From Kiritimatiellia bacterium (lineage in GTDB: Bacteria > Verrucomicrobiota > Kiritimatiellia > JAAZAB01): a stretch of 26,610 nt of DNA. Below are positions 1 to 1,745 of this stretch, one piece after another. Below the pieces are notes generated by a model. It did no database searches. It saw only the letters and a list, made by a program, of their open reading frames with translations, and was not told the origin of the DNA. Where the stretch lies: positions 1 through 26,610 of the forward strand of contig JAXGPF010000023.1 in assembly GCA_040767085.1 (NCBI GenBank), in the 5' to 3' direction. Within the stretch, counting starts at the first letter, position 1. Every line of letters begins with the position of its first letter. A program made the position numbers and the translations under genes.

Positions 1-81
1 GTTAGGAAATGTCTTTGTTGGCTCGTCCTCTGCGAGGGCTCGCCAGCCGATTTTAAGCGCAAATTGGAATTTTTTATCTTT
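1..81. repeat. Left arm of a perfect 81-bp inverted repeat (pairs with 1509-1589); may continue left of the window
   Basis: GTTAGGAAATGTCTTTGTTGGCTCG...AATTTTTTATCTTT is the exact reverse complement of 1509-1589 (position n pairs with 1590-n). The first mismatch is at 82/1508. Confidence 0.97.
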
Positions 82-146
82 GCCCCGAAGGGGCTGGCCA
101 AAAGCGGGCTTCCCGAATTTTTATTTTTAATTTTTAAGGAGAAACT

Positions 147-1745
147 ATGAAATATTTTATCTACACTCGAAAATCAACGGACAGCGAAGAAAGACAAGTT
201 TTAAGTATTGAAGCTCAGCTTGCTGAGCTAAAAGAATTTGCCGCCAAAGAAAAACTTGAAATCGTCGCCTCGCTTTGCGAGGCAAAAACTGCCAAAGAAC
301 CTGGCCGAACTGTGTTCGGCGAAATGCTTGCTCGGATTGAAAAGGGCGAAGCCCAAGGAATTTTGGCTTGGCATCCAGATCGACTGGCTAGAAATTCAAT
401 TGACGGAGGCAAAATCATTTATTTGCTGGACACAGGAAAGATTAAAGATTTAAAGTTTCCCACATTTTGGTTTGATAGCACGCCACAAGGAAAATTCATG
501 ATGAACATTGCCTTTGGCCAAAGCAAATATTACATCGACAATTTAAGCGAAAATATCAAACGAGGTCATCGGGCAAAACTGCGAAAAGGAATTTGGCCAA
601 ACTTTGCCCCGCTTGGCTATTCCAATAATCCCAAAACAAGGGCGATTGATGTTGATAGTGAAAAAGCACCGCTTGTCAGAAAGGCATTCGAACTTTATTC
701 AACGGGTGAATACACACTAAAAGCCCTTGCCAAAGTTTTGGATCAAGCGGGGCTAAGAAGCTACAAAGGCAATGTTCTTTCCGTTTCCTGCGTCCAGCGA
801 CTTTTGCAAAATCCAATTTATTACGGTGTATTTTCTTTCAACGGTGAAATTTATGACGGAACGCACGAGCCAATTATTTCCAAGAAACTTTTTGATTCTG
901 TTCAACAAGTCATGAGCAATCGAGGAAAAAAGAAGCGCAAGCGAAAACACAAATTTGCTTTTTCAGGACTTATGAAATGTGGAAATTGCGACTGCCTCAT
1001 AACTGCCGAGAAGCAAAAAGGACATCACTATTATCGTTGCACCAAGAAAAAGCAACCTTGTAATGAGAAATATCTGCGGGAAGAAAATCTTGTTGAACAG
1101 ATGAAATGGATTATTCAAAAAGTTTCTTTGCCTGATGACTGGGCAAACAATATGCTTGCCGAGATAGACAAAGAGAGAGAACAGGCAAAAGAGGAAACGA
1201 AAGTTTTTGTTCAAAATCTGCAAACCAAGAAAACAGAAATCGAAGCAAAAGCCGAAAATCTACTTGATCTGTTTATCGGTGGAAAAGGTATTGAACCCGA
1301 AGAATATCAAGCTAAAAAACAAAAACTGCTTAACGAGAAGCAGGATATTTTAGGAAAGATAAGAGATTTTGAACAAAAGGGAAATAATTGGCTCGAACCG
1401 ATGAAAGAAATGATTTTAGCCAGTAGCCAAGCCAAAATTCTTTTGTCGCAAAGCGACAATCAAGAAATCCGAGCATTCCTAAAAAATATCGGCTCGAACT
1501 TCATTTTGAAAGATAAAAAATTCCAATTTGCGCTTAAAATCGGCTGGCGAGCCCTCGCAGAGGACGAGCCAACAAAGACATTTCCTAACTGGCGGAGAGG
1601 GGGGGATTCGAACCCCCGGTACCGGTTATTACCAGTACGGCGGTTTAGCAAACCGCTGCTTTCAACCACTCAGCCACCTCTCCGAAAAAAATACAGCCCT
1701 GCACTAACCGCATGCCGCCCCCCCGGATGCCAGCGGTTTGCGTAG
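147..1745 (+). CDS. Large serine recombinase (resolvase catalytic domain, recombinase domain, Zn ribbon, coiled coil)
   Basis: N-terminal YTRKST catalytic Ser motif, DRLARN, APLGY, HEPIIS, LMKCGNC...YYRC...C zinc ribbon, then a heptad-rich segment. AAGGAG RBS upstream. Residues 482-532 are encoded by the tRNA antisense strand and the adjacent spacer. Confidence 0.95.
   Translation: MKYFIYTRKSTDSEERQVLSIEAQLAELKEFAAKEKLEIVASLCEAKTAKEPGRTVFGEMLARIEKGEAQGILAWHPDRLARNSIDGGKIIYLLDTGKIKDLKFPTFWFDSTPQGKFMMNIAFGQSKYYIDNLSENIKRGHRAKLRKGIWPNFAPLGYSNNPKTRAIDVDSEKAPLVRKAFELYSTGEYTLKALAKVLDQAGLRSYKGNVLSVSCVQRLLQNPIYYGVFSFNGEIYDGTHEPIISKKLFDSVQQVMSNRGKKKRKRKHKFAFSGLMKCGNCDCLITAEKQKGHHYYRCTKKKQPCNEKYLREENLVEQMKWIIQKVSLPDDWANNMLAEIDKEREQAKEETKVFVQNLQTKKTEIEAKAENLLDLFIGGKGIEPEEYQAKKQKLLNEKQDILGKIRDFEQKGNNWLEPMKEMILASSQAKILLSQSDNQEIRAFLKNIGSNFILKDKKFQFALKIGWRALAEDEPTKTFPNWRRGGDSNPRYRLLPVRRFSKPLLSTTQPPLRKKYSPALTACRPPGCQRFA
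1509..1589. repeat. Right arm of the 81-bp inverted repeat, inside the recombinase 3' end and directly abutting the tRNA CCA
   Basis: Exact reverse complement of 1-81. Contains an imperfect hairpin (~1542-1572) that could terminate the minus-strand tRNA transcript. Confidence 0.97.
1590..1683 (-). tRNA. tRNA-Ser(GCT), 94 nt, encoded CCA
   Basis: Minus strand GGAGAGG/CCTCTCC acceptor stem, G discriminator + CCA, anticodon arm GCGGT-TTGCTAA-ACCGC, long variable arm GTACTGGT-AATA-ACCGGTAC, T arm GGGGG-TTCGAAT-CCCCC. Confidence 0.97.

Follow-up and report, generated by a model that had tools for sequence, protein, structure and literature searches.

Large serine recombinases (LSRs) such as the integrases of A118 (LI Int), SPbeta (SprA/YokA), phiC31, and Bxb1 are built from three domains (Resolvase, Recombinase, and a zinc ribbon with a long coiled coil), and the LSRs of phages and islands integrate site specifically with a very short core common to element and host. 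Serine integrases are valued for their short sites and one-way reactions, and directionality normally comes from a separate factor. Here, we describe an LSR gene that lies, together with an 81-nucleotide (nt) inverted repeat and a tRNA-Ser gene, at the beginning of a 26,610-nt stretch of DNA (the window) from a Kiritimatiellia bacterium (contig JAXGPF010000023.1 of GenBank assembly GCA_040767085.1). The window LSR has the same three domains and appears to work with a core that is just as short. Unlike the LSRs of phages and islands, however, it appears to target tRNA-Ser genes, at their extreme 3′ ends, and not a protein-coding gene. Its attachment site (attP) would lie within its own open reading frame (ORF), so that integration would swap the last 17 codons, the stop codon, and the terminator, and a second, inverted attP would lie beside the gene.

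Other described systems share single aspects of this arrangement. In Tn3 and gamma-delta, the resolvase gene lies directly downstream of res, which in Tn3 is also the operator for autoregulation, and res offers the nearest functional parallel to a recombination site 66 nt before a start codon. Tn3 resolvase, however, is a small serine recombinase that acts on direct res sites in cointegrate resolution, whereas here the attP copy is inverted relative to the active junction and is a putative operator. In the Hin and Gin segments and in the FLP/FRT system of the 2-micron plasmid, inverted recombination sites bound a segment (the one of Hin holds the recombinase gene), and both orientations are readily seen. 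The window resembles these systems in having a segment between inverted sites with identical inner halves. Once excised, the island would form a circle in which two unique segments are kept apart by inverted repeats that each bear an attP, an arrangement like that of the 2-micron plasmid. It differs from them in that a single orientation is found in all 13 complete loci and in that the enzyme is an LSR of the integrase type. Integrase genes of the SSV1 type are split by integration. Repressor genes of the mycobacteriophage BPs type have attP inside the gene and are integration dependent (PMC4557955). In both types, as proposed for the island described below, integration alters the 3′ end of the attP-spanning gene, and the free and integrated proteins differ. 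BPs and SSV1 use tyrosine integrases, whereas the attP-spanning gene here would be that of the serine recombinase itself, with its last 17 codons exchanged.

An LSR gene at the tRNA-proximal end of a probable integrative island

The reading that we favor, and consider likely, is that window positions 1 to 1595 form the tRNA-proximal end of a small integrative island whose LSR targets the 3′ end of tRNA-Ser and which carries a spare, inverted attP. According to this reading, attP would lie inside the recombinase ORF and would consist of the 81-nt arm (X), the core TGGCGG, 17 native codons (encoded by a block that we call c1), a stop codon, and a GC-hairpin terminator. Integration would cross over in the CCG of the CCGCCA at the end of the tRNA. 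The integrated gene would thereby lose its native tail and its stop codon and read into the tRNA antisense, with the junction of X, core, and tRNA as attL and the junction of c1, core, and host DNA at the far end of the island as attR. The left arm of the window would then be the X of a second, uncut attP (X-core-c1), inverted and located 66 nt upstream of the start codon. Several of the features by which LSR integrative elements are recognized can be pointed to here: three domains, attL and attR (the latter in relatives and absent from the assembly of the window genome), an empty attB, and a core of a few bases.

The first-pass annotation, made from the window letters, had noticed that positions 1 to 81 are the exact reverse complement of positions 1509 to 1589, and a repeat search bore this out: the arms are 81 nt each, 100% complementary, and spaced by 1427 nt. 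No other inverted pair in positions 1 to 4000 exceeds 28 nt (the runner-up has 71% identity), which excludes a chance origin of the repeat. Two further statements of that annotation held up as well, namely, that the right arm is coding (KDKKFQF...TFPN, within the recombinase ORF) and that it reaches the tRNA end; its last base directly adjoins the CCA of the tRNA-Ser(GCT) that ARAGORN and Rfam both report (Table 1). The repeat length of 81 bp applies to the window, but the full repeat of relatives measures 87 nt (X plus TGGCGG) and is identical at 87 of 87 positions in five loci. The left arm of the window is shortened because its contig, C16, begins at window base 1. The description of the gene as enclosed by the repeat likewise needs amending: the arm at the 3′ end does lie inside the gene, but the ORF has no stop codon of its own and continues for 51 codons into and past the tRNA antisense. 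GC content is 35 to 46% in positions 1 to 1590 versus 56 to 68% farther right.

The window genome (G000; 28 contigs, 4.08 Mb, ∼62% GC) does not belong to the candidate phyla radiation (CPR) and carries the element only on contig C16. In a second genome of the same genus (G002), tRNA-Ser(GCT) is unoccupied and a host gene follows directly downstream, an arrangement that represents the empty site. A further copy of the element was found in a related, Kiritimatiellia-labeled metagenome-assembled genome (MAG), at a locus that we call L030. This copy is 100% identical to window positions 1 to 364 and 359 to 1595 (1595 of 1595 bases), and its left arm continues into c1. It resides at a non-tRNA site, for which contig C22 of G000 provides the empty counterpart (host flank 95% identical). 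The occupied site and the empty site have only CCG in common with attP, which places the 2-bp crossover at CC or CG inside the CCG of CCGCCA. The recombinase gene of L030 is itself interrupted (positions 7176 to 10622) by an IS21-like element that encodes a 510-amino-acid IstA-like ORF, has 58 to 66% GC, and is inserted at window positions 359 to 364 with a 6-bp duplication.

Recurrence of the layout in other genomes

We scanned the collection genome_contigs with the 25-nt inner end of the arm (window positions 57 to 81); the locus counts given here are counts among the matches listed. The arm end occurs at at least 80 loci in 72 contigs, mostly MAGs of CPR/Patescibacteria, with Kiritimatiellia, Bacteroidetes, Atribacterota, Nitrospirota, and other labels also represented. 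The same scan of viral_contigs gave 0 matches, that is, no sign of a phage in that collection. An arm-recombinase-arm arrangement, with the arms ∼1452 to 1459 nt apart, is present in 13 contigs other than that of the window, two of which (L030 and L059) have extra insertions; the inverted-repeat architecture that the first-pass annotation had proposed to look for around homologous recombinase genes thus recurs. The same annotation had remarked that serine integrases leave no long inverted repeats, which is correct, and the repeat appears to come from a second, inverted copy of the attachment site, which would lie beyond base 1 and hence outside the letters available to that annotation. Upstream of the gene, the arm adjoins c1 in each of the 13 loci, in the outward order CCGCCA, 17-codon native tail, stop codon, and terminator. 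The arm on the 3′ side adjoins tRNA-Ser in 10 loci, the non-tRNA site in one (L030), a c1 variant in one (L058), and the contig end in one (L042). When all 81 distinct arms are considered, 49 adjoin a tRNA, 16 adjoin c1, 7 adjoin other sequence, and 9 are cut. Every one of the 49 tRNAs is a tRNA-Ser, irrespective of the anticodon (TGA in 14, GGA in 13, CGA in 10, GCT in 10, and ACT in 2), and TGGCGG directly follows every arm that could be resolved.

The complete layout is best seen in locus L073. Read with the tRNA on the left, it consists of tRNA-Ser ending in CCGCCA, X′, the recombinase gene pointing toward the tRNA, its leader (b1), a hairpin (h), X, TGGCGG, c1, the GC-hairpin terminator, a recombinase scar joined to a second leader copy (b2), an Xre-type gene (71 amino acids in relatives), variable cargo, and finally the terminator and c1 in opposite orientation, ending in CCGCCA and followed by host DNA. 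The scar is a second recombinase copy in which positions 284 to 303 are joined to positions 1481 to 1508 (a2), directly on b2. Conservation runs ∼470 nt past the left arm (c1, terminator, the a|b junction of scar and leader copy, and Xre gene) and is followed by cargo, which in L078 includes a restriction-modification system. The far end (terminator, c1, and CCGCCA, in the orientation of a tRNA) lies 1.4 to 5 kb away in L073, L013, L020, L031, L042, L085, L007, L048, L058, and L059, and that of L073 is identical to the spare copy at 113 of 114 positions. By its position, the 71-amino-acid Xre-type protein of relatives is a candidate recombination directionality factor. In L104 (∼1387 to 1425), a metagenome contig, and in L068, the loop of the terminator hairpin after c1 is inverted relative to c1 when compared with all other contigs, a small inversion confined to the loop.

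Several loci deviate from this layout. L067 is an integrated form with a single arm. The contig of L021 (4636 nt, with a 51-nt direct terminal overlap) carries a related recombinase (region 80% identical) and a single arm in the attP configuration, and is probably the free circular form of a distant related element; for the lineage of the window itself, no circular form was seen. A class without recombinase comprises 15 arms, in the order tRNA-Ser, X′, h, b, Xre gene, cargo, and c1; these loci are predicted mobilizable cassettes between the same sites. In L073 (11405 to 11626, minus strand), the host flank at the far end consists of the 3′ end of another, diverged serine recombinase gene, which reads into c1. 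Such a flank points to tandem arrays, where the older element would regain a native tail from the newer one, and L058 would be the converse.

A single recombinase gene between long, perfect inverted repeats, in an element present in many genomes, could also be a 1.6-kb one-gene transposon or insertion sequence with the 81-bp arms as its terminal inverted repeats. We regard this as very improbable. Since conservation extends well beyond the left arm (the ∼470 nt described above) and is followed by cargo up to a defined far end, the repeats are not the ends of the unit. In addition, forms with a single arm exist both integrated (L067) and circular (L021), and insertion is site specific, with tRNA-Ser at 49 of 49 tRNA-adjacent arms.

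Authenticity of the repeat

The repeat begins at contig base 1, and the element has no other copy in the 28-contig assembly. Both observations would suit an assembly or amplification artifact, that is, a fold-back chimera (as the first-pass annotation had considered) or a de Bruijn graph hairpin at the contig end. To our judgment this explanation has a negligible chance of being right, because the inner junctions recur in independent runs and the layout is found deep inside long, unrelated contigs (L072/L073, at ∼232 kb of 247 kb; L048/L049, at ∼78 kb of 87 kb). The runs in question came from four studies: Logan contigs (k = 31) from four runs, one study each, were aligned to window positions 1 to 2400. 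The junction at 81/82 is crossed by unitigs that span positions 52 to 910 (run X1, with 4 differences) and 52 to 258 (run X2, with no difference), which come from different studies, and the junction at 1508/1509 is crossed by unitigs that span positions 1412 to 1538 (runs X2 and X3). With the 81/82 junction in two runs of two studies and in 13 other genome contigs, the chimera proposed in the first-pass annotation is refuted.

The depths in run X2 bear on another of its proposals, a mixed population of both orientations that the assembler had collapsed. The two junction unitigs have depths of 8.4 and 7.8, and the arm unitig (1509 to 1595) has a depth of 16. An arm at double depth between junctions of equal depth points to one molecule with both arms and leaves the collapsed population without support. 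Moreover, the arm unitig extends to position 1595 rather than 1589, which means that both copies of the arm are followed by TGGCGG. Unitigs at k = 31 break inside the 81-nt arm, and these data therefore address each junction by itself and cannot phase the arms. Parts of the stretch that are uncovered in some Logan runs were given no interpretation.

Variants of the element are present in the same data. In runs X2 and X3, an insertion of 36 nt, consisting of two small GC hairpins, lies in frame at 247/248, and internal deletions recur (303 to 1481, 261 to 1480, and 266 to 1589). The joint of the 303-to-1481 deletion is the same as that of the scar beside the spare attP of relatives.

Several points weigh against the island reading. 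First, a chimeric join via the conserved 3′ end of the tRNA is conceivable, as ∼29 to 31 nt are common with tRNA-Ser genes of CPR. The identical copy in L030 speaks against such a join because it is located at a non-tRNA site and is broken by the high-GC IS21-like insertion, which argues that the element truly resides in this lineage. Second, neither c1 nor the Xre gene was found anywhere in the G000 assembly. The G000 counterpart of the downstream host gene is on contig C8, whose start is an IS3-like fragment and not c1. Given this start and the absence of c1 from the assembly, the rest of the island, including its far end, is probably unassembled; the region between the tRNA and the C8 gene is either rearranged or unassembled in G000. 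The spare attP of G000 is accordingly a prediction from the identical copy in L030 and from the relatives. Third, recombination at these sites is proposed here from assembled sequence. Fourth, none of the simple schemes considered for the origin of the inverted copy and of the recombinase scar (integration, tandem accretion, or a single inversion) gives all junctions. Finally, no promoter was called in positions 82 to 146 and the RNA fold of positions 1 to 146 has a z score of 0.95, so that a regulatory role of the spare attP is suggested by its position.

At the start of contig C8 (bases 1 to 287; locus L101), the fragment ahead of the host gene is that of an IS3-like transposase OrfA.

The recombinase and the proposed exchange of its C terminus

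The recombinase ORF has matches to PF00239 (Resolvase; 5e-19), PF07508 (Recombinase; 6e-17), and PF13408 (Zn_ribbon_recom; 1.6e-7), all above the curated cutoffs. The protein begins with MKYFIYTRKST, in which R8, K9, and S10 are at least 90% conserved among 35 aligned homologues; by analogy, S10 of the Y-x-R-x-S motif is the putative catalytic nucleophile. Weak but significant sequence matches in the PDB were obtained for SprA (9dxh; E value, 1.5e-7) and A118 Int (4kis; E value, 6.6e-6). These alignments end at about residue 398, and the C terminus was not placed on any solved structure. An AlphaFold2 model of the 532-amino-acid ORF (35 homologues) had a mean predicted local distance difference test score (pLDDT) of 64.7, with residues 449 to 532 below 50, and the fold of the part encoded by the arm could not be read from it.

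A search retrieved 7580 homologues of the window recombinase. The motif GSNFILKDKKFxFxxKIGWRALAEGEP is conserved in homologues down to ∼62% identity, and its KDKKFQFxxKIGWRALAEGEP portion lies in the arm, which by this conservation is genuine coding sequence. The conserved protein consists of residues 1 to 481, and the codons from position 1590 on are tRNA antisense and host DNA. The tails of homologues are of two kinds. In 62 of 94 clusters with a recognizable C terminus, the tail is of the WRRGWDSNP type, which is the translated antisense of the acceptor and T arm of a tRNA. In at least 12 of the 94 (counted by eye on the printed tails), it has the form W..L..[IV]RT.F..NP and is followed by a stop codon. 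In c1, the recombinase ORF continues as WRCAFEKIRTDFAQNL, followed by a stop codon and the terminator; these 17 codons match the native type of tail.

Possible explanations: inversion, scar, or regulatory site

The first-pass annotation had also proposed a self-inverting cassette. In its fuller form, the segment from 82 to 1508 would flip between the arms, through the recombinase or through homologous recombination, and either the tRNA antisense or the native tail, with stop codon and terminator, would follow the gene. We think this improbable, though less so than the transposon or the artifact. In its geometry, the cassette matches an invertible segment, bounded by inverted sites each of which lies beside the core TGGCGG in relatives. 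The two arms of a locus are more alike (median identity, 0.989; n = 15) than arms of different loci (0.921; n = 420 pairs); no base differs between the two in 7 of 15 loci and one base in 3 more, and lineage-specific variants are found on both arms (L007, L058, L079, L085, and the window together with L030). This likeness within loci and the common variants point to exchange between the arms. In a single metagenome contig, L104, the 3′ end of the recombinase gene is followed by X, c1, the terminator, a|b2, and the Xre gene, and a cassette in the flipped state should show just this linkage. In that state, the two copies of a (a1, beside the right arm, and a2) and of b (b1 and b2) would be direct repeats, and deletion between them would yield the recombinase-a|b-Xre fusion P0044, L029, and the 15 recombinase-less arms (h-X-tRNA-Ser).

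Against continuing inversion stands the single orientation of all 13 complete loci. Likewise, the 3′ end of the recombinase gene is on the inner side in none of the 16 arms that adjoin c1; 14 of these carry h, and 2 are cut. The occurrence of both orientations, by which switches of the Hin/Gin type are recognized, was not seen among the complete loci. The a1-X-c1 junction is present in only two contigs of the collection metagenome_contigs (L104 and L105), and L105, with c1 on both sides of the gene, could equally be a circular or tandem form. Serine integrases (phiC31, Bxb1, and A118) are also not known to pair attL with attP (compare PMC3783163). Of the proposal, then, the geometry fits and the predicted linkage in complete loci does not: a rare flipped isomer fits one metagenome contig and the recombinase-less cassettes, and ongoing self-inversion finds no support in the uniform orientation of the loci.

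A different explanation, which we hold to be unlikely but less so than inversion, is that the spare attP is a functionless scar, left over from a tandem or nested insertion and an inversion, then inherited and kept similar by gene conversion. An identical deleted recombinase remnant (284 to 303 joined to 1481 to 1508) follows the spare copy in every locus, a uniformity that suggests a single ancestral rearrangement. Tandem arrays do exist, as the far end of L073 adjoins the 3′ end of a second, diverged recombinase and the gene of L058 adjoins a c1 variant. However, arms and c1 are 96 to 100% identical to L072 probes, versus 86 to 94% for recombinase coding sequence, and this holds across phyla. 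The layout is also retained in 13 of 13 complete elements, more than a neutral scar would predict.

Within the island reading, two ideas about the role of the spare attP can be put forward. As a first guess from its position, tentatively and slightly ahead of the scar, the spare attP may be a high-affinity binding site by the promoter of the recombinase and may serve in autoregulation as res does in Tn3. The other idea, to which we give little credence, is a two-state module: the usual integrated enzyme would have a junk tail derived from the tRNA and no terminator, and the native tail, stop codon, and terminator would be reattached when attL and the spare attP recombine in a rare flip, or when the element is excised as a circle with two inverted attPs, like the 2-micron plasmid, so that activity or directionality would be set via the C terminus of the enzyme itself. 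If this were true, no separate directionality factor would be needed, and the many recombinase-less cargo cassettes would likewise stem from the flipped state, via deletion between the repeats that are then direct.

An island family that carries a spare, inverted attP thus appears to be widespread and was apparently undescribed. LSR islands that target tRNA-Ser and hold an internal inverted attP were not found in the literature searched, which included passages of bioRxiv 10.1101/2020.12.28.424599 and PMC12884075. Three properties would set the family apart: an attP within the integrase gene, a target at the last bases of tRNA-Ser, and a spare inverted attP that is always carried. It is abundant, with at least 80 loci and thousands of homologous proteins, and its range across phyla extends from ultrasmall bacteria of the CPR to a Kiritimatiellia-like genome of 4 Mb and 62% GC. 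If the exchange of the tail or the spare site controls activity, this would be a new kind of serine integrase regulation and a compact, self-contained integration module. For annotation, it is relevant that integrated recombinase ORFs have no stop codon of their own and that contigs tend to break at the arms.

Further features of the window

The coordinates of the features are collected in Table 1. In relatives, the stem of hairpin h is conserved and its loop is variable, and h is paired in both the minimum free energy and the centroid fold. The first ∼26 to 38 nt of the leader b1 recur in relatives ahead of the Xre-type gene (b2), with 82 to 88% identity, and the 28 nt of block a are 100% identical in L072/L073, matching window positions 1481 to 1508.

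Table 1. Coordinates of features at the left end of the window (strand as read 5′ to 3′; a dot marks features without a strand)
Feature	Positions	Strand	Description
Left arm X′	1..81	-	Predicted inner arm of the spare, inverted, uncut attP; clipped by the contig end
Hairpin h	82..94	.	5-bp GC stem and 3-nt loop between arm and gene leader
Leader b1	96..146	+	Includes the ribosome-binding site
LSR ORF as it stands	147..1745	+	532 amino acids; supported by Pfam domains and homologues
Block a	1481..1508	+	Final 28 nt before the right arm; recurs beside b2 as the a|b junction in relatives
Right arm X	1509..1589	+	Encodes recombinase residues 455 to 481; predicted element-side arm of attL
Core TGGCGG	1590..1595	.	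tRNA 3′-terminal CCGCCA; common to attL, spare attP, and attR as predicted
tRNA-Ser(GCT)	1590..1683	-	Host tRNA, predicted integration target (attB half); ARAGORN, Rfam

In a scan of positions 1 to 2200 for promoters and terminators, none was called in positions 1 to 146, and the counts were not above those of shuffled sequences; in particular, no promoter of the sigma-70 type was called in the leader region from 82 to 146. The fold of positions 1 to 146 (see above) is no more stable than those of shuffled sequences and makes no case for a structured RNA. With Rfam, only the tRNA reached the gathering score in positions 1 to 2200, and two matches below threshold overlap it.

The window also contains a direct repeat (1649 to 1692 and 1830 to 1873) that consists of the 5′ half of tRNA-Ser(GCT) and 4 to 5 upstream bases, with 39 nt identical. 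Its two copies are separated by 137 nt of GC-rich hairpins. This 181-nt duplication of the tRNA 5′ half is also present in G002, with ∼90% identity over the whole arrangement. Its conservation there marks the duplication as a host feature that has no connection with the recombinase site at the 3′ end of the tRNA.

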